Shown: positions 2,466 to 28,886 of the stretch, piece after piece
How the letters are laid out: the number at the start of each line of letters is the position of its first letter
Position numbering within the stretch: position 1 is the stretch's first letter
IMG/VR virus record: IMGVR_UViG_2923302340_000002
Coordinates: 1-29,281 of that record
Direction: 5' to 3' (one strand)
Length of the DNA stretch: 29,281 bases
Source: a virus
Taxonomy: Duplodnaviria > Heunggongvirae > Uroviricota > Caudoviricetes
Notes under the pieces: model-generated
The model's database searches: none
Seen by the model: the letters and a program-made list of their open reading frames with translations, nothing else
Told to the model about the DNA's origin: nothing
Translations under genes and position numbers: made by a program

Positions 2466-2491
<26 letters not shown>

Positions 2492-2562
2492 TCAGCAACC
2501 CCGGTATCAGTTCATCCAGCGCGGCTGCTTTGTTCATGGCTTTGATGATATCCCGTTTCAGG
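2466..2562 (-). pseudogene. nu1: nu1 3' fragment (C-terminal ~31 codons of terminase small subunit), separated from the rest of the gene by the IS insertion
   Basis: Minus-strand reading gives LKRDIIKAMNKAAALDELIPGLLSEYIEQSD-stop, overlapping the A start as in lambda. The fragment abuts the left IS end at 2562/2563. Confidence 0.75.
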
Positions 2563-2592
2563 GTAAGCGGCTCGTCAGAACCGTATTGATAT

Positions 2593-4164
2593 TTACTGAG
2601 AGCTCAGATCAACTTTCCAGGGCAACAGATCGCGTACCCGGTTTGCCGGCCAGTCCTGGATATGTTCAATGACGTAGCGCAGCCACTTTTCTGGCTCCAC
2701 ATTGTTCAGACGGCATGTGCCGATCAGCGAGTACAACACCGCCGCATGTTCACCACCGCTGTCGGAACCCGCGAACATCCAGTTTTTCCGGCCTACGGCC
2801 ACTCCCCGTAAGGCGTTCTCTGCGATGTTGTTGTCGATTTCCACCCAGCCATTACTGCAGTACACGTTCAGTGCATCCCACTGTTTCAGCAGGTATGCGA
2901 ACGCTTTTGCCGTATCTGAGTGACGCGACAGTGTTTTCATCTGTTGCTGTATCCAGTCATACAGTGACTGCATCAGTGGCGCGGCTCTGGTTTTTCTTGC
3001 CGCCAGACGCTGTTCTGCTGAACAGCCCCGGACCTCTGCCTCGATGGCATACAGTTCACCGATACGCTGCAGGGCTTCCGTGGTGATGTCGGTGGGCGCT
3101 CTTGCATGCACATCGTGGATTTTTCTCCGGGCATGAGCCATACACGCGGCTTCCGTTATTCTGCCGGATTCGTATAACGCCCGGTAACCACCGTAAGCAT
3201 CGGCCTGAAGCACACCGCTGTAACCGGCCAGGTGATTTTGTGGATGGATACCTTTCCGGTCCGGACTGTACGCGAACCAGACCGCCGGGGGCATCTGTGA
3301 ACCGGCGTTACGGTCATCACGGACGTAGACCCACAGCCGGGCTGTCCGGGGTTTACCGCTGCCCGGCTCCTGGACCGGGACGGGGATATCATCAGCATGG
3401 ACTTTACCGGGCATCAGCACATACTGGCGCAGGACGTCATACAGCGGCTCCAGTAGTTCAGCAACGGCACCTGTCCAGCGCCCCAGCGTGGCGCGGCTCA
3501 GCTCCACACCCTGACGGCGGTATATCTCTGACTGGCGGTATAACGGCAGATGGTCTGCATATTTTCCGGTGACGACATGGGCCAGGAGCCCCGCTCCGGC
3601 ATAACTGCGTGCAATGGGTTTTGAAGGTACTGGTGCCTGCACGATATGGTCGCACCGGCAACAGGCCAGTTTCGGACGTTGTGTTTCGATAACCTTAAAG
3701 GCGCTGCTGATAAGCTCCAGTTGCTCTGACACATCACATCCCAGAGAACTGAGTTCACCACCACAGGCCGGACAGCATTCCTCTTCCGGCCGGATAACCC
3801 GGGTTTCACGGGGAAGTGAGGCCGGTAACGGTTTACGGGCTGAAGACTGGCGCAGGGCGGATGGCAGTACCGGGTCATATTGCTCACCCAGCGTTTCCGC
3901 CATTTCTTCCTGAAGTGCGCTGATTCGCTCCTGTGCTTCCTGTATCTGCCGTTCGGTTTTTGCGCGAAGTTTTTCTGAGCTTTTACCGAACTGCATACGC
4001 TGCAGTTTCGCAACCAGCGCCTTCAGCCGGTTGATTTCGGAAGCATAAGCCGCCACCCGCTGTGAGAGCAGGCGGTTGTATTCAGCCATCTGGCGTATGG
4101 TGTCCTGTTGCGTCTGCAACAGTGCCCGCAGGCGGGCGTTCTCATGAGCAAGTGAGGTGTCCAT
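2593..4164 (-). CDS. tnpC: IS66-family transposase (TnpC / orf3)
   Basis: 523-aa ORF with an N-terminal coiled-coil region ([33 protein letters not shown]), a Cys-rich zinc-binding segment (CPACGG...CCRCDH) and a C-terminal catalytic region, as typical of IS66 TnpC. Confidence 0.9.
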
Positions 4165-4183
4165 ATCCTCACTTTACAACGGG

Positions 4184-4531
4184 TTATATACGGATTCCAG
4201 CGCGTTCCGTTCGTTTCGGGTGCTTCCAGTTGATACCTTCAAGAAGCATGGATAACTGAGCCGGAGTAAGGTGCACCTTGCCGTCACGGGTGACTGGCCA
4301 GACGAAGCGGCCCCGCTCCAGGCGTTTGGTGAAGAGGCACAGTCCGTCACTGTCAGCCCACAACACTTTTATCTGGTCACCCCGGCGTCCGCGGAAGATG
4401 AACAGGTGTCCGGAGAACGGGTCATCCTTCAGGACGTTCTGAACTTTTGATGCCAGGCCGTTAAAACCATTTCGCATGTCGGTGATACCGGCAACCAGCC
4501 AGATACGCGAACCGGCAGGGAGAGATATCAT
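4184..4531 (-). CDS. tnpB: IS66-family accessory protein (TnpB / orf2)
   Basis: 115-aa ORF MISLPAGSRIWLVAGITDMRNGFNGLASKVQNVLKDDPFSGHLFIFRGRRGDQIKVLWADSDGLCLF, typical IS66 Orf2. Its start overlaps the upstream ORF stop. Confidence 0.9.
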   Translation of the reverse strand: MISLPAGSRIWLVAGITDMRNGFNGLASKVQNVLKDDPFSGHLFIFRGRRGDQIKVLWADSDGLCLFTKRLERGRFVWPVTRDGKVHLTPAQLSMLLEGINWKHPKRTERAGIRI

Positions 4532-5208
4532 CAGTGGCTGCTCCCTTTCATTTCGCGGATAAGTGTCTGTAATAACGCCGGCGTCAGTTTACCTTTAAGC
4601 CTGAGAGTTCCGGCCGGCAGAACCAGCTCGCAGCACAGACTGTCTGGCAGTGTATTTATCTGTTCAGGTATCTGCACTGGTGCCGGGATTTTATTATCCG
4701 GCTCCGGCGTTAACGTCACGGGAAGTAGCGATGTTTCATGTTCGCCGGGCGGCTGCAGGCCGCCGTTACGCCAGAGATGCCGCCAGTTAAAGAGCAGGTT
4801 ATCGTTGATTCCGTTTTCCCGGGCGATCTGCGCCACACAGGCTCCGGGCTGCAGTGACTGCTCCACTAAGGCGATTTTAAACTCATAAGGGAAGTTGGGC
4901 CGCCGGGGACGTTTTTTTACCACGGGGGCTTCGGATATAACGGTGCTTTCAGGACGTACGACTGGTACCGTGGAAAATTGTCCGTAAAGGCAGGCATCAA
5001 GTTCCTGCTCCGACATGCCTGCGGGCAAAGGCCACGAAAGGCCAGCTCTCCGAAAGCGCACGAACATACTACAAACTGTTGATTTTGGTACACCCAGGCG
5101 ACGCCCGGCCACAACCCGGGGTAAATGTTCTTCAAAGTGAAGACGTAAAGCTTCAGTGATCCAGGTCCGGTGTTTCATACGATAGTGTCCATTAAAAATG
5201 ATGGACAT
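4531..5208 (-). CDS. tnpA: IS66-family helix-turn-helix protein (TnpA / orf1); the true start may be internal to the 225-aa ORF
   Basis: The ORF contains the segment RPNFPYEFKIALVEQSLQPGACVAQIARENGINDNLLFNWR typical of IS66 Orf1. It is longer than usual for this protein, so the start codon is uncertain. Confidence 0.7.
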   Translation of the reverse strand: MSIIFNGHYRMKHRTWITEALRLHFEEHLPRVVAGRRLGVPKSTVCSMFVRFRRAGLSWPLPAGMSEQELDACLYGQFSTVPVVRPESTVISEAPVVKKRPRRPNFPYEFKIALVEQSLQPGACVAQIARENGINDNLLFNWRHLWRNGGLQPPGEHETSLLPVTLTPEPDNKIPAPVQIPEQINTLPDSLCCELVLPAGTLRLKGKLTPALLQTLIREMKGSSH

Positions 5209-5244
5209 TATTTTTGTAGAGCCGGAGGAAACAGACCAGACGGT

Positions 5245-5718
5245 TTAAATGAGCCGGTTACGTTTCAGGAAATCAACATGTCGGTTTTCCAGTTCCGGAA
5301 AACGCCGCTGTACCGAGAGAGGGATCCCGTCAAGAATACTGGCAATTTCACCTGCGATCCGTGACAGCACGAAAGTACAGAATGCGGTTTCCACCACCTC
5401 TGCGGAGTCTCTGGCATTCTTCAGCTCCTGTGCGTCGGCCTGCGCACGCGTAAGTCGATGGCGTTCGTACTCAATAGTCCCAGGCTGGAGATCTGCCTCA
5501 CTGGCAGCCCTGTAACCCTCAACCTCTTTACGGAGTTTTTCATTTTCGATATCAGCTTCCCTCTGCGCATACCACTGAATTGCCATGGCGGTATCAAATA
5601 CAGATTCAACGCCCTTACCACCTCCGGAGACACAAGGGAGTCCCTGAGATTGCCAGCGTTCAATCGTTCGCGGATCCACGTTGAAAATTTCGGCAAGTTT
5701 CTTTTTATTAACCTTCAT
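5245..5718 (-). pseudogene. nu1: Terminase small subunit nu1, truncated by the IS66 insertion after about codon 153, with the last four codons and the stop supplied by IS sequence
   Basis: [39 protein letters not shown]...[15 protein letters not shown] follows lambda Nu1 and then diverges into NRLI-stop exactly at the IS junction (5261/5262). Confidence 0.85.
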
Positions 5719-5719
5719 G

Positions 5720-5940
5720 AAACAGTCTCACAATAAATACAGGGGCCGACATGAAAGTGCCCGAAAATGACTTTTTTAGGCGTTTTCATGTCGGACCTTT
5801 TACGGATTCGATATTAGAAAAAACAAATAGTTATGTTCGAGAAGTACCGACATGATTTTCCCCGGAAAATTTTCATAAATAGCGAAAATCCGCAAGGTCG
5901 CCGCCCCGTAACCTGTCGGATCGCCGGAAAGGACCCGCAA
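5720..5940 (-). other. cos: cos site: cosN with the 12-nt cohesive-end sequence at 5895-5906 (plus strand AGGTCGCCGCCC, i.e. GGGCGGCGACCT on the minus strand), with cosB toward nu1
   Basis: The minus strand reads CCGACAGGTTACG / GGGCGGCGACCT TGCGG, the lambda right-end/left-end junction as I recall it. It lies about 180 bp upstream of the nu1 start. Confidence 0.8.
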
Positions 5941-6105
5941 AATGATAATAATTATCATCTACATGTCACAACGTGCATCTACGCCATCAAACCACGTCAA
6001 ATAATCAATTATGACGCAGGTATCGTATTAATTGATCTGCATCAACTTAACGTAAAAACAACTTCAGACAATACAAATCAGCGACACTGAATACGGGACA
6101 ACCTC

Positions 6106-6339
6106 ATGTCAACGAAGAACAGAACCCGCAGAACAACAACCCGCAACATCCGCTTTCCTAACCAAATGATTGAACAAATTAACATCGCTCTTGATCAAAA
6201 AGGGTCCGGGAATTTCTCAGCCTGGGTCATTGAAGCCTGCCGCCGGAGACTGTGCTCAGAAAAAAGAGTTTCTCCTGAAGCAAACAAAGAAAAGAGTGAC
6301 ATTACTGAATTGCTCAGAAAACAGATCAGACCAGATTGA
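6106..6339 (+). CDS. Small putative ribbon-helix-helix DNA-binding protein (77 aa)
   Basis: Basic N-terminus followed by RNIRFPNQMIEQINIALDQKGSGNFSAWVIEACRRRL, a beta-strand plus two-helix pattern typical of Arc/CopG-like proteins. Lies in an AT-rich block between cos and the lysis genes. Confidence 0.45.
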   Translation: MSTKNRTRRTTTRNIRFPNQMIEQINIALDQKGSGNFSAWVIEACRRRLCSEKRVSPEANKEKSDITELLRKQIRPD

Positions 6340-6395
6340 AGCAATTTAGATAATCGTGCAGACTACGCCCCTCATATCACATGGAAGGTACTACA

Positions 6396-12609: not shown

Positions 12610-13293
12610 TCAGTAGCGATGCAGTGAAGGAGGTAATTCTTTGTTCTTAAGCCTTATCCATGCGGAAAGATTTGTTGGTCCGTCTGGCTCATTGATATCA
12701 ACATCTCGTGTGTGGTTGATTAAAACGTCTCTCGCCATTCCAATAACATACGAGAACTCATGACCGTAGTCGTAGCATCTGCCGGAATAGTTCGATTGAA
12801 TTTGTTTTAATGCCGGATACAGTTCGCGGAATAATGCCTGTGAGCGGTTGGCATAATCCCATAACCATACAAGGCTGTTTGCTTCTTTTGCGGAAAGCTC
12901 GTTGGTGCTCTTCTCTTGTTTGCCAGTATTTTTCTTGCACTGCCTGAAATAGCAGTCTTCCAGTTTTTCGAACACATCCCACGCCTGATCGGTTTCGAGC
13001 ATTTTGGCGTGACGGGCTGCGCCGCGTTCTGTCCAGAGGATGAGAGAGCGAACGTTGCGGGCAATTTTCACAGACTCGCTTAAAGATAGTCTGTGCTTCA
13101 TACCTCTAAGCTCATCGCCCACTAATTTATAAAAATGCTTACCTTCAATAAAACGTTCAGCGTTTCTGGCGTGATTTTGCTGAATGCGAATCGCTTCTGT
13201 GCCGTAAAGCTGCGCCAAAAGTTCAGTGGTAATAACAGGTATCTGGTTATGGGTGATCGGGGAGAGAGTTTCAACAGAGATTTGAGTTGTCAT
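12610..13293 (-). CDS. KilA-N / ORF6N-domain protein (Roi-like DNA-binding or antirepressor-type protein)
   Basis: N-terminal segment [46 protein letters not shown] matches the KilA-N/ORF6N pattern. The gene is bracketed by terminators, forming its own transcription unit. Confidence 0.55.
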
Positions 13294-17675: not shown

Positions 17676-17903
17676 TTATGCTGCCAGAAGATTCTTTTTG
17701 CTTATTTCAAGCAATTCGCTTGCTTGATATTTGCCACCAGAAATCTCTTCGATTTTTGAGGCGTATTTCGTTTTCCCAAAAAACTCAGTCTTAGGGAGGA
17801 AGCCGTTTTTGAGCCACTTATAGACAGCCCTTTCGCTAACTCCACAAGCCTTCGCAACTTCAGGGATGCCGACACTCTTAATCGGCTCATCAAGATTTTG
17901 CAT
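17676..17903 (-). CDS. cro: Cro-like repressor (75 aa, helix-turn-helix)
   Basis: Small HTH protein (GIPEVAKACGVSERAVYKWLKNG) transcribed divergently from cI, separated from it by a 77-bp operator region. Confidence 0.75.
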   Translation of the reverse strand: MQNLDEPIKSVGIPEVAKACGVSERAVYKWLKNGFLPKTEFFGKTKYASKIEEISGGKYQASELLEISKKNLLAA

Positions 17904-17980: not shown

Positions 17981-18688
17981 ATGGTTCAGAATGAAAAAGT
18001 GCGCAAAGAATTCGCCCAGCGGCTAGCGCAAGCCTGTAAAGAAGCTGGTCTTGATGAACATGGTAGGGGAATGGCCATAGCCCGTGCCCTTTCTCTTTCG
18101 TCCAAAGGCGTTAGCAAATGGTTTAATGCTGAGTCTTTACCGCGTCAGGAAAAAATGAATGCGCTTGCGAAATTTCTAAACGTTGATGTTGTTTGGCTTC
18201 AGCACGGCACTTCGTTAAATGGAGCGAATGATGAAGATACTCTTTCATTTGTTGGCAAATTAAAAAAAGGGTTAGTGCGCGTGGTTGGTGAGGCAATTCT
18301 TGGTGTTGATGGTGCCATCGAGATGACCGAAGAGCGCGATGGGTGGCTCAAGATTTATAGCGATGATCCAGATGCCTTTGGTCTTCGTGTGAAAGGAGAC
18401 AGCATGTGGCCTAGAATAAAATCAGGAGAATATGTACTCATTGAGCCTAACACCAAAGTATTCCCGGGTGATGAGGTGTTTGTCAGAACCGTTGAAGGAC
18501 ACAACATGATTAAGGTTCTTGGCTATGACAGAGATGGAGAATACCAATTTACAAGCATCAACCAAGACCACAGGCCAATAACGTTGCCTTATCATCAAGT
18601 AGCAAAGGTGGAGTATGTGGCTGGTATTCTGAAGCAATCTCGCCATCTGGATGACATCGAGGCAAGGGAGTGGCTGAAAAGTTCGTGA
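17981..18688 (+). CDS. cI: CI repressor (HTH domain plus LexA-like S24 autopeptidase domain), immunity type not lambda
   Basis: 235-aa ORF with an N-terminal HTH region and a C-terminal LexA-like S24 peptidase-like segment (VKGDSMWPRIKSGEYVLIEPN...). Divergent from cro. Confidence 0.85.
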   Translation: MVQNEKVRKEFAQRLAQACKEAGLDEHGRGMAIARALSLSSKGVSKWFNAESLPRQEKMNALAKFLNVDVVWLQHGTSLNGANDEDTLSFVGKLKKGLVRVVGEAILGVDGAIEMTEERDGWLKIYSDDPDAFGLRVKGDSMWPRIKSGEYVLIEPNTKVFPGDEVFVRTVEGHNMIKVLGYDRDGEYQFTSINQDHRPITLPYHQVAKVEYVAGILKQSRHLDDIEAREWLKSS

Positions 18689-18793
18689 CTTCATCGTCAC
18701 ATAGCTGATAGTCAGTGGCCTAAAAAGACGTTTGGGTCGTGAATTAGTTTTCAAACATCTATGTTTGGTGCCTATATCTAGGAAAAATAGGTT

Positions 18794-19531
18794 TTGCAAA
18801 ATAACTATCTACAGGTTATAGCCTATACTAGGCGCATGAATGATGGTATGACCAAGCCATTCCTTTGTACTTGCCAAGATGGGCTGGCTTACATAGTTAA
18901 AGGAAGGCCAAAACTTCGCCAAAAAGAGCTTGTAGCAGAATTTATTGCCGCCCATCTAGCAAAACAGATAGGTCTGCCATGTCCTGATTTTTGCATTGTT
19001 GATGTTGATTGTGGGTTAATCGAGTTCATGCCTGACTTGCGTGGTGAGCTTTTGCCTGGACCTGCATTTGCTACCCGCTTTATTGAAAATGCATCAATCA
19101 TAAATATTCAACAAGCAAGGAGTGCTGTAACCATTCAGGAACAAAAGAAAATATTCTTCTTTGACCGCTGGATAAACAACGCAGACAGATCATTGACTGA
19201 CATTGGTGGTAATGTAAACATAATTTACGATGCATTTAACAATAGGTATTACCTGATTGACCATAATCTGGCGTTCGCGCAGGATACAAGATCTCATGAG
19301 TATGATGTCCATGTGTATTCGCCGAATGGAAGACCGTGGGTTTTCGACATGCTCGACGAACCCGAACTGATGGATCTTGCAAATGATGCTATTAGTTCAG
19401 TAGAGGAGAAATTTAATCAGCTTCCGGATGAGTGGTTTTCAACCGATGAAGAACGAAGGCTAATGCTGAATGAGATAATGAACTGCCTGAACAGAGTGCA
19501 CGACAGAGAGTTTTGGAGTAACATCAAATGA
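18794..19531 (+). CDS. Kinase-like protein (tentative HipA-like / atypical kinase fold) at the rexA-equivalent position; the true start may be the internal ATG at 18836
   Basis: Same strand as cI and 105 bp downstream of it. Contains WINNADRSLTDIGGNVNIIYD ... YYLIDHNLAF, resembling a kinase catalytic loop (D...N) followed about 20 residues later by a DFG-like IDHN. Motif-level resemblance only. Confidence 0.4.
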   Translation: MQNNYLQVIAYTRRMNDGMTKPFLCTCQDGLAYIVKGRPKLRQKELVAEFIAAHLAKQIGLPCPDFCIVDVDCGLIEFMPDLRGELLPGPAFATRFIENASIINIQQARSAVTIQEQKKIFFFDRWINNADRSLTDIGGNVNIIYDAFNNRYYLIDHNLAFAQDTRSHEYDVHVYSPNGRPWVFDMLDEPELMDLANDAISSVEEKFNQLPDEWFSTDEERRLMLNEIMNCLNRVHDREFWSNIK

Positions 19532-20346
19532 CCACACCATGCCTGTATAGCATTATTAGATATGCTCCATATGCAGAAACCGAAGAGTTTGCTAATGTCG
19601 GTGTGGTTCTTTGTGCCCCGAAATTAGGTCAGTTTTGCTTTAAACTGACCCAAAGCAACAATGCCAGAGTAAAAAACTTTTTTCAGGATGAAATCATTTT
19701 CCCTCACGCGAGGGATGCAATTGCAAGAGAGCTAAAATTTGCTCAAGAGCAAAGTTATAAATTCAATTCTCCTGAAAAATTAGCAAATTTTTTCAACTAC
19801 TTAATTGGCAGGAAAGAGTCAATCATTCATTTTAGCTCTGCAAGAGTTGCAATGTCTGCTTGTCCACAAGACATGATGCACATACTTTTTAATAAGTTTG
19901 TACATCATTCAGAAATAACAAAAGAATCTCGTGAGACCATCCTGACGAGAGAGCTTAAGCATCGTTTCTCTCATTATAACGAACTCAGGAACGCCTTTAA
20001 AAAGGAAATGCTTGGTGGTGAACTAACGCGGTTTTCTGTACCATTTGTTGCCCGTCACGATGGAGAGATTTTATGTGCTATCAAACCCCTAACATTCACT
20101 CAGGACAAGCCTGAGAAAATGTTGGAGCACTGCGACTCTTGGACGGCCAAAATTCTGCGCGCCGCCAGTGAAAAAATTTTATCTGTCTCAAATGTGTTAT
20201 TTACGATAGATGCACCTCGCCAGCCAAGTGAGCTTGAGGTAAAAGCGATGAGTGAGATTCGTAAGACATTCGATGAGAAAGGTATAAATCACGTAGAGCA
20301 TCAGGATGAAGCATCAATAGTAAAGTTTGCTAAGCAAGCAATTTAA
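19528..20346 (+). CDS. Hypothetical 272-aa protein, translationally coupled partner of the kinase-like gene (rexB-equivalent position)
   Basis: Its start overlaps the upstream stop (ATGA at 19528-19531). It is followed directly by a strong intrinsic terminator. No recognised motif. Confidence 0.4.
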   Translation: MTTPCLYSIIRYAPYAETEEFANVGVVLCAPKLGQFCFKLTQSNNARVKNFFQDEIIFPHARDAIARELKFAQEQSYKFNSPEKLANFFNYLIGRKESIIHFSSARVAMSACPQDMMHILFNKFVHHSEITKESRETILTRELKHRFSHYNELRNAFKKEMLGGELTRFSVPFVARHDGEILCAIKPLTFTQDKPEKMLEHCDSWTAKILRAASEKILSVSNVLFTIDAPRQPSELEVKAMSEIRKTFDEKGINHVEHQDEASIVKFAKQAI

Positions 20347-20373
20347 CCCGGCCACCGAGCCGGGTTTTCTTTT
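20346..20373 (+). terminator. Intrinsic terminator ending the cI-proximal lysogenic operon (timm-like)
   Basis: CCCGGC-CACCGA-GCCGGG hairpin followed by TTTTCTTTT, starting at the stop codon of the 272-aa gene. Confidence 0.7.
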
Positions 20374-20379
20374 CCTCTC

Positions 20380-20640
20380 GATCGCCCACCTAAAAATACA
20401 TAATCGATTGTATTTGTTGAAAAATAAATAGATACAACTTGCTAAACAGTGCAACCCTGATCCCTGCCCTATCACCTTCACCCTCAACATTTACAAAAAT
20501 AAAATACCTTATATATCAAAACCATATCTCGAGAAAACGAATGAACAATAAAATTTCGTACTTATGGTTATTGATTATATCGAACCAATAGTTCATTATT
20601 ATCACCATCAGCAGGACGCTGGAAGCCAAACGGAACAGAC
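20380..20640 (+). promoter_or_regulatory. Presumed OL/pL region (AT-rich)
   Basis: AT-rich 260-bp region between the lysogenic-operon terminator and nutL. Contains TTTCGTACTTATGG, related to the OR motif. Confidence 0.35.
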
Positions 20641-20790: not shown

Positions 20791-21063
20791 ATGTCCAGAA
20801 AAACAGAATTTAAAGGCACCGCAGCTTCTCGCCGTAGAGCTCGTCGCGCAAACCTGCAAAGTCAGGAGGCGATTAGCTCCGACAAGCTACACAGGCCAAC
20901 CACCTCACGAGTGGTCTTGCAATGCAAGCGCAAACCAGCAATGAGAGCAGAAGTTATAACTCTGACAACGTTGATCAGAAAATATGAAGGTTCAACTTGT
21001 CTTCCAAACGTAGCTCTTTACGCGGCAGGCTACCGGAAATCAAAACAACTGACGGCGAGGTAA
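20791..21063 (+). CDS. N: N-type antiterminator (arginine-rich motif), start taken at the internal ATG with a GGAGG Shine-Dalgarno
   Basis: MSRKTEFKGTAASRRRARRANLQ: arginine-rich RNA-binding motif near the N-terminus, the first gene of the leftward operon after nutL. The ORF track extends the frame upstream to 20707. Confidence 0.7.
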   Translation: MSRKTEFKGTAASRRRARRANLQSQEAISSDKLHRPTTSRVVLQCKRKPAMRAEVITLTTLIRKYEGSTCLPNVALYAAGYRKSKQLTAR

Positions 21064-21458: not shown

Positions 21459-21953
21459 TTAATAATTTGTCAGCGGCGGTACATATACAGGCTTAGGGTC
21501 TGGCGCTCTATACATCCGGTATTCATTCTTACAGCGAGGACATGAATGCACAAAGAACCCATTAGATTTTATAGTAACCGTGCTTGGTTGAAGTATCGAT
21601 ATTTTATGTTCGCCGAAGCAATGTGCACAAAGGTTATGCTGCTGAATAGAAGGATCGGAATGACTCTTAGGTCGATACACGACAGAACCACCTTCAGTTG
21701 TATGAAGTTCATAATTCTCAGCTTGCACAACAAACATCTTGATTTTTCTATTTTCATCTCGAAGCTTCATTGCGATCTCCTTCTCGGCCTGATAAAGGCC
21801 AGAGAGCTCCGCATTAAGCATCTGTAAGTCAGTTATTCTTTGGTGTAGATCACCAATAGCTTTAGCGATAACAGCATCGTCTCTGGTTTCTTTTATTGTC
21901 TTCAGCAGATCATAAGCCTGTTTCGCGGCAGTTATACCAGATAACACATCCAT
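21459..21953 (-). CDS. Hypothetical protein with an N-terminal coiled coil and a C-terminal CxxC...CxxC zinc-ribbon-like motif, oriented against the pL operon
   Basis: 164-aa ORF with CAHCFGEHK ... SCPRCKNEY. Opposite strand to the surrounding early-left genes, so it needs its own promoter in the 21954-22153 region. Confidence 0.5.
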   Translation of the reverse strand: MDVLSGITAAKQAYDLLKTIKETRDDAVIAKAIGDLHQRITDLQMLNAELSGLYQAEKEIAMKLRDENRKIKMFVVQAENYELHTTEGGSVVYRPKSHSDPSIQQHNLCAHCFGEHKISILQPSTVTIKSNGFFVHSCPRCKNEYRMYRAPDPKPVYVPPLTNY

Positions 21954-22153: not shown

Positions 22154-22624
22154 ATGACAAAATCATGGAGCGTACCTTTTCCTGAATCAGAAACTGAACA
22201 TGATGGAATGCCTGTTTTCTGGAGATTCCAGGCGACAGTTGAAGAAGATGGAATCAAAATATTCGCACTTCAATATATAGCTTTTCATCAGACAGAGCAT
22301 TATGCATGGTTGGTTCCTGCGCATTGGATTGTTAATTTTAAACCAGCACCAAATCAGTGGTTACAGGAATGGAAACAAAAGAGAAATAGATATGCAATTA
22401 AGAAAGTAGCAAAAAATGCAGAAAGATCTTTTGCATTCCCAACGAAGAAACTTGCTATTGAAAGTTTATTGCGCCGGAAGAAATACCATTTAATGAGAAT
22501 AAAACAAGATTTGGCTGTTGTATCAACTCTTGTTGATGGGATGAAAAATATTGATACATCAACACCAGATATTGAATATAACTTTGGGCACAACCAAGAA
22601 ACAGAAAATTGGGTATTTTATTAG
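22154..22624 (+). CDS. Hypothetical protein (156 aa) in an AT-rich moron
   Basis: ORF preceded by an AGGTGAG Shine-Dalgarno and followed by hairpins and a terminator. AT-rich codon composition. Confidence 0.5.
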   Translation: MTKSWSVPFPESETEHDGMPVFWRFQATVEEDGIKIFALQYIAFHQTEHYAWLVPAHWIVNFKPAPNQWLQEWKQKRNRYAIKKVAKNAERSFAFPTKKLAIESLLRRKKYHLMRIKQDLAVVSTLVDGMKNIDTSTPDIEYNFGHNQETENWVFY

Positions 22625-26808: not shown

Positions 26809-27108
26809 GTGCAGTCGGTTTTGATGGAGAAAATTATGAACACCTTGTTTTTACTGATGGCTGAATTCAATACCCCTAACATTGAACTCTCAGCAGTTAG
26901 CCAAAAGTACTTTGGCATGAGTCCAGCCACGGCAGAAGCAAAAGCAAACGCTTGTAAGTTGCCCGTTCCAACATATCGCATCGGCACATCACAAAAAGCA
27001 AAACGTTGCATCAATATTCAGGATCTTGCGGAATATATTGACAAAAGACGGGAAGAAGGGCGAGCTGAGTGGGAAAAAGTCAGAACGGAAAAACAAAAAT
27101 ATAACTAA
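26809..27108 (+). CDS. xis: Excisionase-like / PrtN-family DNA-binding protein
   Basis: Small basic protein with an N-terminal HTH-like segment (LSAVSQKYFGMSPATAEAKANACKLPVPTYRIG), the last gene of the leftward operon before a terminator. Confidence 0.5.
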   Translation: MQSVLMEKIMNTLFLLMAEFNTPNIELSAVSQKYFGMSPATAEAKANACKLPVPTYRIGTSQKAKRCINIQDLAEYIDKRREEGRAEWEKVRTEKQKYN

Positions 27109-27123
27109 ACTAAAACTATGGAT

Positions 27124-27153
27124 AACCCGTATATGTACGGGTTATTTTTCTTT
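27124..27153 (+). terminator. Intrinsic terminator at the end of the early-left operon
   Basis: AACCCGTA-TATG-TACGGGTT hairpin followed by ATTTTTCTTT. Confidence 0.65.
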
Positions 27154-27690
27154 ATCACTATCTTTTCTTGATTTGAACAATCCACTAACAACGAAACCAA
27201 CCAAACCAACAATACTAATTGTACTTGTACCTAGTAATGCAACGATCGCTTCAACTGGAGGCTTTCCTTCATGTGCAATAAGAAACGATGTAAACATTGC
27301 GACAACGAATAAGCACCAACACGACATAAACCAAACCGTGAATGAGGCCATTTTTGTCCGAAGCTCATTGTCTATTTCTTTACCAGTTGCGTCAGCTATC
27401 TTATCCCGTACTTGTGATTTGAGCATATCAAGCTGAGCTTGAAGACTGTCCATTCTGTTCTGCTGCATAAACTCATGCAATGCACCAGTATTAGAACCAA
27501 ACTCTTCTGCCTCCAGAATAGCTTTATTTTCTGAAGAAGAATCATCGTCGCTCTCATGATTAGACGGCTCAAATGCAGATTTAAAAATCTGTTCTTGACT
27601 GTCAGTAGAGTTTAAGGATGCTTCAGAGCGACCATTTTCAACACCTGCGGCCGCTCCGATAAGTTTATAGATATCTGAATTGTGAGACAT
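27142..27690 (-). CDS. Membrane protein with an acidic N-terminal domain and two C-terminal transmembrane helices (candidate toxin partner of the Panacea-domain protein)
   Basis: 182 aa with C-terminal hydrophobic helices (FTVWFMSCWCLFVVAMFTSFLIA and AIVALLGTSTISIVGLVGFVVSGLF). Lies 22 bp downstream of the Panacea-domain gene on the same strand. Confidence 0.45.
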   Translation of the reverse strand: MSHNSDIYKLIGAAAGVENGRSEASLNSTDSQEQIFKSAFEPSNHESDDDSSSENKAILEAEEFGSNTGALHEFMQQNRMDSLQAQLDMLKSQVRDKIADATGKEIDNELRTKMASFTVWFMSCWCLFVVAMFTSFLIAHEGKPPVEAIVALLGTSTISIVGLVGFVVSGLFKSRKDSDKEK

Positions 27691-27712
27691 GTCATCCCTG
27701 AATATTACTTTT

Positions 27713-28201
27713 TCAGAGGCCCTGACATTGCTGTCGGTTATTCAATAAATCATGATAATAAGCCTTGATCGCATCATTTGAGATGATTGACGAGCCAATA
27801 CCATTATAAGCTTGTGACCAAGGCGTACCAGGCATATGAGTTAGAGTTGATAACTCAATTCCATTTTTCGAGCCGTAAAATTTATAAACAGCCCCTATAA
27901 TGCTCTCTGCTTGTGGATCCATAGTAACAATGCCACCAAAAGGAGCTACTGCTACATTCGTAACAGGTTTATTCCCATAATCTTTGAAAGCATCGTACAT
28001 TCCAGGAATAACTGGACCGTACTTCCACGCGGAGACACATTCATTGAGCAAAGGCTTACCTGTTAATGCTAAATAGTAACCATGTGCAATATAAGTAAGC
28101 TTCTGCAGTTGCATGTGGGTCAGAGGATTATGATGTTGGTTTCCCAACGTTATGAATTTATTGGCTATTTGTACCGGGCTGTACATAACCACCCTCCTCA
28201 T
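27713..28201 (-). CDS. Panacea (DUF4065) domain protein, antitoxin-type
   Basis: 162 aa with YSPVQIANKFI ... THMQLQKLTYIAHGYYLALTGKPLLNECVSAWKYGPVIPGMYDAFKDYG, the pattern I associate with the Panacea domain. Confidence 0.6.
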   Translation of the reverse strand: MRRVVMYSPVQIANKFITLGNQHHNPLTHMQLQKLTYIAHGYYLALTGKPLLNECVSAWKYGPVIPGMYDAFKDYGNKPVTNVAVAPFGGIVTMDPQAESIIGAVYKFYGSKNGIELSTLTHMPGTPWSQAYNGIGSSIISNDAIKAYYHDLLNNRQQCQGL

Positions 28202-28886
28202 TACACTGAATGTGCAAACAGTATCATCACTGTTATCTCAACCTAGCACGAACAAAAAAATTTTGGAAGATTGCAAGAGCAATTCACTGTGTTTATAACC
28301 AGCAAAGAACTGTACATATACACAGGTTACAAATTGGTGGCGAATTATACCTGCAGAAGTTGCGATGTCAACAAAGCGACCATCACAGTGTTTTGCATCT
28401 CACACTGCTATGACAAAAAATCTTTTGATAGGTTCCCAATAGGCTCCCACAAAACACATAACCAATTGTTTTTCAAAAACGATACATCCTATCGAGCATT
28501 GGTGCAACGCTAAACCGACCACTCCAGTGAACGTCAGTTTTTTCAGGCATTGCGCTGGTTTGGTTGATTTTTTGCATTTCAGAATTACCGTGCATTTTCA
28601 AATGTAGAGATTATTTTATCGATATATCATGGGGTTATGTTATTCAGCATCACTGTTCAGGAGGCTCAATAGCGGGGTACTATACCATAACAACAGGAAG
28701 CGCCTGTCTCATTGCAAAAGAAAATTGAGATCCTCTCAAGGCATGAAGCTCTCACGAAGTGATGGAAATAATCTTATTAGCCGTTAGCTTTGTTAAGGCC
28801 AATGATAAACAATCCAGGTTCGACGATAAATAAAAATCACACATTAAACTCCGGTGATATCTCTCCCTGCTAATAGCACTGATAGA

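Follow-up and report, generated by a model that had tools for sequence, protein, structure and literature searches.

A probable HipAD-type two-gene anti-phage system in the repressor-to-PL slot of a lambdoid Escherichia coli prophage

We report that two genes directly downstream of the cI-type repressor gene of a lambdoid prophage in Escherichia coli CFSAN018748, coding for a HipA_2-family kinase and a DUF3037 protein, probably constitute a HipAD-type two-gene anti-phage system (also described as DS-6 and PDC-M66), carried as accessory cargo in the slot between the repressor gene and the leftward promoter PL; we put the probability of this reading at roughly three in four. The DNA analysed (hereafter the window) is IMG/VR virus record IMGVR_UViG_2923302340_000002 in its full length of 29,281 nucleotides (nt). 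It corresponds to the first 29 kb of the CFSAN018748 chromosome (NZ_CP028192.1), where the matched stretches are numbered one base higher than in the window.

Results

Gene content of the immunity region

The window is a lambdoid prophage, and the features of its immunity region are as follows (positions are those of the window; protein lengths are given in amino acids, aa; HTH, helix-turn-helix).

17676-17903, strand opposite to cI: cro-like gene
17981-18688, plus strand: cI-type repressor gene, HTH_3 and Peptidase_S24 domains (RefSeq WP_000250473.1, LexA family regulator)
18689-18793, plus strand: spacer of 105 nt between cI and the kinase gene, with the left cassette junction at ~18738-18746 and a GGAAAA Shine-Dalgarno-like box
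18794-19531, plus strand: gene for a HipA_2-family kinase, putative toxin, 245 aa, TTG start (HipA of HipAD, DS-6A-like, PDC-M66A)
19528-19531, plus strand: ATGA stop/start overlap, predicted translational coupling, read from the sequence
19528-20346, plus strand: gene for a DUF3037 protein, putative antitoxin, 272 aa (HipD, DS-6B-like, PDC-M66B)
20345-20376, plus strand: intrinsic terminator (terminator scan), closing the cI-kinase-DUF3037 unit
20791-21063: N antiterminator gene (RefSeq annotation)

An original prediction, made by a model from the letters of the window and a list of its open reading frames (ORFs), had pointed to the 245-aa and 272-aa ORFs on the cI strand, their ATGA coupling and a strong terminator at the stop codon of the second gene. 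All of these were recovered at the positions listed, and the RNA fold of the terminator has a predicted energy of -14.4 kcal/mol (z = -2.2 against shuffles). The order of the genes, from cro (minus strand) over cI, the kinase gene, the DUF3037 gene and the terminator to N, is that of lambda, i.e. cro, cI, rexA rexB, terminator and PL-N, and this bears out the proposed location of the pair in the rexAB slot. In the presumed operon cI lies nearest to the promoter; it is context, outside the defence pair.

The HipA_2-family kinase

The 245-aa protein belongs to the Pfam family HipA_2 ('HipA-like kinase', PF20613; E = 2.6e-75, residues 11-244 of 245, profile positions 4-240). This was its sole Pfam match at E <= 1, and the HipA_C, HipA_N and Couple_hipA domains were not detected; outside Pfam it matches PHROG 3162 and the PADLOC model PDC-M66A (9e-19, 66 bits). 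In an alignment of 29 homologues, with identities down to 30%, residues K36, E49, D124, N129, D131, R132, G139, N140, N142, I155, D156, H157 and N158 are invariant. D131 is located within NADRSLTD and D156 within LIDHN, i.e. the catalytic-type residues flagged in the original prediction (in DRSLTD and IDHN) are real, and the predicted catalytic set is complete. The AlphaFold2 model of the kinase (predicted local distance difference test, pLDDT, 90.5; predicted TM-score, pTM, 0.89) has PI4K-II alpha, H. pylori CtkA, Legionella HipT and Shewanella HipA as best PDB matches and places the protein in the PI3/4-kinase and HipA branch of the protein-kinase-like fold. The suggestion of a HipA-like or atypical kinase was thus upheld by two of the checks that had been proposed for it: the profile searches put the protein in a kinase family with the catalytic residues intact, and structure prediction gave a confident kinase fold. 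Profile and single-sequence searches of the PDB returned no relative of either the kinase or the DUF3037 protein.

RefSeq starts the kinase at M19 (window position 18848; 227 aa), 18 codons later than the TTG at 18794. The longer 245-aa ORF appears to be the better supported start call: most homologues are 245-246 aa and aligned from residue 1 over the whole query, residues 8-18 are conserved in the homologue alignment, and 16 related loci among the closest relatives have a 245-aa kinase ORF with a TTG start. The distinct upstream sequences shown for TTG-start loci carry a GGAAA(A/G) Shine-Dalgarno-like box, and ATG occupies the same aligned start position in other clades.

The DUF3037 partner

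The second protein, in which no recognisable domain had been seen originally, does contain one, namely DUF3037 (PF11236) at residues 7-125 (E = 4.5e-19). Further matches are to PHROG 5137, along the entire protein (6e-99), and to PADLOC PDC-M66B, over residues 7-258 (9e-15, 53 bits), and its model (pLDDT 88.6) shows two domains, at ~1-126 (DUF3037) and ~132-272. The N-terminal DUF3037 domain is strongly conserved, with P14, E20, F21, N23, G25, R47, F51 and F52 being invariant. The model of the C-terminal domain suggests a restriction-endonuclease-like fold, and the domain has the conserved motifs P172-F and A184-I185-K186-P187, with E200-H201 and W205 in the following helix; the assignment of the P172-F and AIKP motifs to modelled strands is a secondary-structure reading, made without structural superposition. 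Among 65 diverse members the canonical acidic residues of PD-(D/E)xK are absent, with P-F and A-I-K in place of P-D and (D/E)-x-K and the lysine alone being kept. Because these acidic residues are missing we read the domain as a degenerate nuclease fold, and a role in binding nucleic acid or the kinase seems more likely for it than DNA cleavage.

Proteins of this two-domain build are common: 1537 cluster representatives (50% identity) were found by a profile search at E <= 0.001, and almost all of the best 150 of these 1537 matches are 265-290 aa long. For DS-6B, the corresponding protein of DS-6, the DefensePredictor authors noted a weak DUF1829 match (HHpred probability 0.78; PMC13092281). 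As an assignment for the C-terminal half, DUF1829 was not recovered when 36 members of the family were run through hmmscan against Pfam (E <= 1).

Identity with HipAD and comparison with other known systems

The sequences of the two proteins identify the pair as a divergent allele of the already described HipAD (DS-6, PDC-M66) kinase toxin/antitoxin system. Specifically, the kinase is 44% identical to DS-6A (106/240) and the DUF3037 protein is 49% identical to DS-6B (134/272), in both cases over the full length and almost without gaps (DS-6A, WP_000389051.1; DS-6B, WP_000210934.1; sequences from the supplement of PMC13092281), and the catalytic aspartate D139 of DS-6A aligns with D131 of the window kinase. 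Gene order, the stop/start overlap, the combination of HipA_2 with a DUF3037 protein that carries a C-terminal domain, and a location immediately behind cI in a lambdoid phage are also shared. The two alleles differ in protein lengths (245 and 272 aa versus 249 and 275 aa) and also in the type of cI, and while the window allele is rare in E. coli, being present in 2 of 5426 complete genomes, the DS-6 allele was found in 284 of them. The name HipAD is represented by Escherichia phage PhiR5_1 (PV340545.1), which is annotated with cI, 'HipA toxin' and 'HipD antitoxin', with Kil, Gam and Bet next in order. Its HipA and HipD align to the window proteins in the same way as DS-6A and DS-6B do (44% for HipA), and since they directly follow cI the named HipAD system occupies the same post-cI slot.

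In the DefensePredictor study from the Laub laboratory DS-6, with DS-6A described as a HipA-family kinase, was validated and protects E. coli (PMC13092281). The supplementary plaque-count value against phage Bas1 is ~5 (the log10 ratio of control to DS-6 counts), defence was lost on mutation of a DS-6A residue predicted to be key for catalysis (the strain list names D139A), and AlphaFold3 supports an interaction between DS-6A and DS-6B (PMC13092281). According to the same study, DS-6 was independently discovered in Brenes and Laub 2025 and renamed HipAD (PMC13092281); Kaur et al. 2020, cited alongside the HipAD work, does not mention HipA. Moreover, a HipA-like/DUF3037 pair is present beside Retron-Sda1, where deletion of the kinase abolished defence against phage Bas51, deletion of the DUF3037 gene was toxic and the retron parts of the operon were dispensable (PMC12548924).

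Through the validated DS-6/HipAD homologues, the original idea of a lysogen-expressed exclusion or abortive-infection cargo with a translationally coupled partner gains support. The statement that neither protein could be matched to a named defence system has to be given up, as the pair matches PDC-M66A/B, DS-6/HipAD and the Retron-Sda1-type module. It had also been said that the proposal would fall if the two genes turned out to be a well-characterised module; this largely applies, in the sense that the system has been described, and the functional interpretation stands while the pair can no longer be regarded as unmatched.

Of the related systems, PDC-M66 is matched by the window proteins in both its A and B models. 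Moderate scores (66 and 53 bits) make the window allele appear peripheral to the PDC-M66 seed set, and PDC-M66 is itself a bioinformatic candidate class and not a mechanism. The Retron-Sda1 module has the same domain pair, and the genetic results obtained with it favour a kinase toxin that a DUF3037 antitoxin restrains; it belongs, however, to a retron operon of an environmental bacterium, whereas the window pair lies in a prophage immunity region without reverse transcriptase or non-coding RNA.

With HipBA and HipBST the pair has in common the kinase superfamily (the model matches the HipT and HipA folds) and, presumably, the principle that a protein partner restrains a toxin kinase. The window kinase is, in contrast, a minimal one of 245 aa, the toxin gene comes first, and the partner has neither a HipB helix-turn-helix nor a HipS-like domain. 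A canonical HipBA system would have a HipA_C kinase together with HipA N-terminal domains (~440 aa) and a dedicated HipB encoded upstream; here the upstream HTH protein is the phage repressor cI with its S24 domain. The HipA and HipT targets GltX and TrpS are not established for the HipA_2/DUF3037 family.

The likeness to lambda RexAB is one of place, i.e. the slot that, on the cI strand, extends from cI to the terminator ahead of PL/N, and of presumed co-transcription with cI in lysogens. Slot, presumed expression and the role of excluding other phages would be common to RexAB, the 933W-type Stk kinase and the window pair, but Stk is a eukaryotic-type kinase and not HipA_2, and no RexA or RexB family match was found for the pair in Pfam, NCBIfam, PHROGs or PADLOC.

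Distribution and genomic context of the pair

A scan of viral contigs gave 80 loci (82 were scored when two GenBank phage loci are included). The kinase gene is immediately upstream of the DUF3037 gene in 79 of the 80 viral loci, and in the 80 scored loci that have both genes the junction is ATGA in 77, GTGA in 2 and TTGA in 1. A CCCGGCC...GCCGGG hairpin with a T-run is located 3' of the second gene in 74 of 79 related loci. Because the overlap and the hairpin are kept to this extent, both features exceed what chance would be expected to give.

Where enough upstream sequence was available, a repressor-like gene lies directly upstream on the same strand (74 of 76 loci), and these repressors form 12 clusters at under 50% identity. 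Nine of the ten repressor representatives scanned have Peptidase_S24, and the tenth, which represents a cluster of 22 loci, has a CI-type HTH only. In Proteus prophages, for example, an S24 repressor is followed by HipA_2, DUF3037, an N peptide and then variable genes. The pair also occurs without a repressor: plasmids of Pseudomonas and Vibrio carry it, with the 4-nt overlap preserved, and in a metagenomic contig it is next to uvrB. This argues that the two genes are a self-sufficient functional unit and that cI is their context. The upstream cI was also considered as a HipB-like third component and rejected, given that the pair exists without any repressor on plasmids and chromosomes. The window allele is commoner in Salmonella records, and its closest relatives include an S. 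enterica protein cluster on 731 contigs as well as Salmonella phage SW-37.

The interval between cI and the terminator is a cargo slot

A cI-gene sequence 95-99% identical to that of the window, at a query coverage of at least 80%, is present in 427 of the 5426 complete E. coli genomes, and the cassette is present in 2. In the O103:H2 strain 12009 (NC_013353.1 locus, 4269-6346) an identical cI protein is followed by different cargo, i.e. genes for a DUF3024 protein, a hypothetical protein and a 348-aa serine/threonine (Ser/Thr) kinase (Stk-like) and a 54-aa ORF, and strain EC6868 has a hypothetical protein of 299 aa behind a cI that is nearly identical. Since an identical cI elsewhere precedes other cargo, the slot is a hotspot for cargo, like the rexAB position of lambda, as had been anticipated for the cI-proximal position. 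These data support the cI-to-terminator interval as a place to search for lysogen-expressed defence genes.

The edges of the cassette were taken from junction alignments. Homology with phages of the same cI and other cargo stops near 18737 and homology with phages of the same cassette and another cI starts near 18746, which puts the left edge at ~18738-18746; the right edge is at the stop codon, ~20344. Just past the cI stop there is a short box, GGCCTnAAnAGnCGTTTGG (window 18710-18740), which is common to immunity modules with different cI or cargo. It is located where homology switches and a weak hairpin was flagged at 18715-18740; the box might mark a boundary of recombination or form a small RNA structure.

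The terminator stem, AACCCGGCC-ACCGAG-CCGGGTT at 20345-20366, includes the TAA stop of the 272-aa ORF and is followed by TTCTTTTCCT. The 56-nt terminator region (20345-20400) is 93-95% identical in many Shiga toxin (Stx)-converting and other lambdoid prophages (88 E. coli genomes), and in the one of these that was checked, O157:H7 F8492, it follows unrelated cargo, a hypothetical and a NYN-domain protein, behind a different cI. The terminator is a phage-backbone element at the position of the lambda cI-rex operon terminator and is outside the cassette. Repressor operators flanking the cassette, defined from the right operator (OR) palindrome ACTTTCAGT / GTACTTTCAGTAC, were looked for and not retained; only two OR copies stand out and none is near PL.

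With respect to transcription, a promoter scan found no sigma-70-like match on the plus strand of the 105-nt spacer (18689-18793), and co-transcription of the pair with cI fits this result. From the layout together with the negative scan we infer that, in the lysogen, transcription of cI extends into the pair.

Discussion

Proposed mode of action

By analogy with the tested homologues, the pair likely represents a kinase-dependent defence of the toxin-antitoxin, abortive-infection type that would be expressed in the lysogen. In the proposed mechanism the two genes would be transcribed together with cI from the repressor-maintenance promoter, as for lambda rexAB, and the DUF3037 protein would bind the HipA_2 kinase and keep it inactive. 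An infecting phage would disturb the kinase-DUF3037 complex and free the kinase, which may then phosphorylate an essential host or phage factor with the result that the infection is aborted or blocked. As a tentative extension, HipAD might be a nucleic-acid-sensing kinase switch, in which the N-terminal DUF3037 domain holds the kinase while the C-terminal domain senses phage DNA or a replication or recombination intermediate; we consider this possible, at a low probability. If it were true, the window allele would differ from DS-6 in trigger range.

Several points weigh against the interpretation as an active defence system of this type. The toxin-antitoxin/abortive-infection model is a hypothesis of the published authors and not a demonstrated mechanism, resting on one toxicity result, obtained with a distant homologue, and on AlphaFold3 interface scores. 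With 44-49% identity to the tested allele, the phage range and even the activity of the window pair could differ. The prophage looks defective (see below), and retention of the pair could reflect addiction instead of defence. As to expression, the scan recorded the weak hairpin in the spacer (18715-18740) and, inside the kinase gene, a promoter-like site on the plus strand (19197-19224; CTGACA, 16 nt, CATAAT, the latter being TATAAT in the majority of related alleles) that precedes the second gene by ~300 nt. Lambda has an internal rexB promoter, to which such a site would be analogous. As an internal promoter for the second gene the site was set aside, since it overlaps the invariant GGNVNII codons and its conservation is uninformative.

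Alternative explanations

The pair might instead be a direct exclusion kinase, the DUF3037 protein being a sensor or adaptor that switches the kinase on when it meets a phage component, with no free toxin being released. A model for this is the Stk kinase of phage 933W, which is reported to phosphorylate phage or host proteins, and the Stk-like Ser/Thr kinase of O103:H2 strain 12009 lies in the same slot behind an identical cI. The partner is also larger than a simple antitoxin needs to be (two conserved domains in 272 aa), the 1537 cluster representatives retain its architecture, and its nuclease-like C-terminal domain could bind nucleic acid. Deletion of the DUF3037 gene was toxic in a homologous construct, however, which argues that the partner restrains and does not activate the kinase, and we hold a direct exclusion kinase to be unlikely; it and the toxin-antitoxin model are not fully exclusive.

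We judge it quite unlikely that the two genes form an addiction or stabilisation toxin-antitoxin, or a hipBA-like persistence module, which keeps the prophage and has no real anti-phage role. The toxicity of the DUF3037 gene deletion in the homologue would agree with such a role, as would the IS66-family insertion in the small terminase gene of the prophage and the presence of the pair on plasmids, where addiction modules are common. Against this, two independent homologues gave kinase-dependent protection against phages from clones removed from their native setting, linkage of the pair to the lysogen-expressed cI slot holds strongly over 12 types of repressor, and the same slot also carries other exclusion-type cargo (Stk-like kinase, NYN-domain protein).

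That the DUF3037 protein is itself the effector, its C-terminal domain being an active nuclease controlled through phosphorylation by the kinase, is very improbable, with the canonical acidic residues missing (P172-F, A-I-K186), with loss of the DUF3037 gene causing toxicity instead of removing it and with the catalytic activity of the kinase being required for defence by DS-6.

Significance

The result mainly amounts to a correct annotation, in that a pair labelled in RefSeq just as 'DUF3037 protein' and 'HipA family kinase', the latter with a start 18 codons too late, can be named a probable kinase defence system of the HipAD type at the place of rexAB; judged by sequence, the pair is a rare new allele of a known kind of system. 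To what has been described before we add a corrected start codon, the cassette boundaries, a putatively nuclease-like but apparently non-catalytic C-terminal domain in the partner, and the strong linkage to the post-repressor slot, with at least 12 repressor types and in several enterobacterial genera. A second allele at 44-49% identity would provide a useful comparison for what sets trigger and target specificity.

Other features of the prophage

An insertion element, ISCro1 (IS66 family: tnpA, tnpB and transposase genes; window ~2466-5718, minus strand), splits the small terminase gene. Because of this interruption the prophage looks defective; it is probably so, yet its immunity region and the defence cassette are intact.

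The following genes and regions elsewhere in the window were also noted. Between N and cIII there are two ORFs, of 164 aa (21459-21953, minus strand) and 156 aa (22154-22624, plus strand), neither of which has a family match. The former ends in paired cysteine motifs, CAHC...CPRC, and both are located in another region that often holds accessory cargo. At 12610-13293 (minus strand) an antirepressor-like protein with a P22AR C-terminal domain matches the PADLOC candidate PDC-S05 (1.2e-8).

At the other end of the prophage no integrase gene is annotated between a PrtN/excisionase-like gene (26836-27108) and a truncated tRNA-dihydrouridine synthase gene, and the attachment-site end (window ~26836-28600) looks rearranged or degraded. 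This end also carries a gene for a SocA/Panacea-domain antitoxin (27713-28186, minus strand; PF13274, 5.9e-18) and, downstream on the same strand, a 182-aa ORF (27142-27690) with no family match. The two genes (27142-28186), which adjoin the tRNA-dihydrouridine synthase remnant (~28491-28595), are probably a Panacea-type toxin-antitoxin pair.

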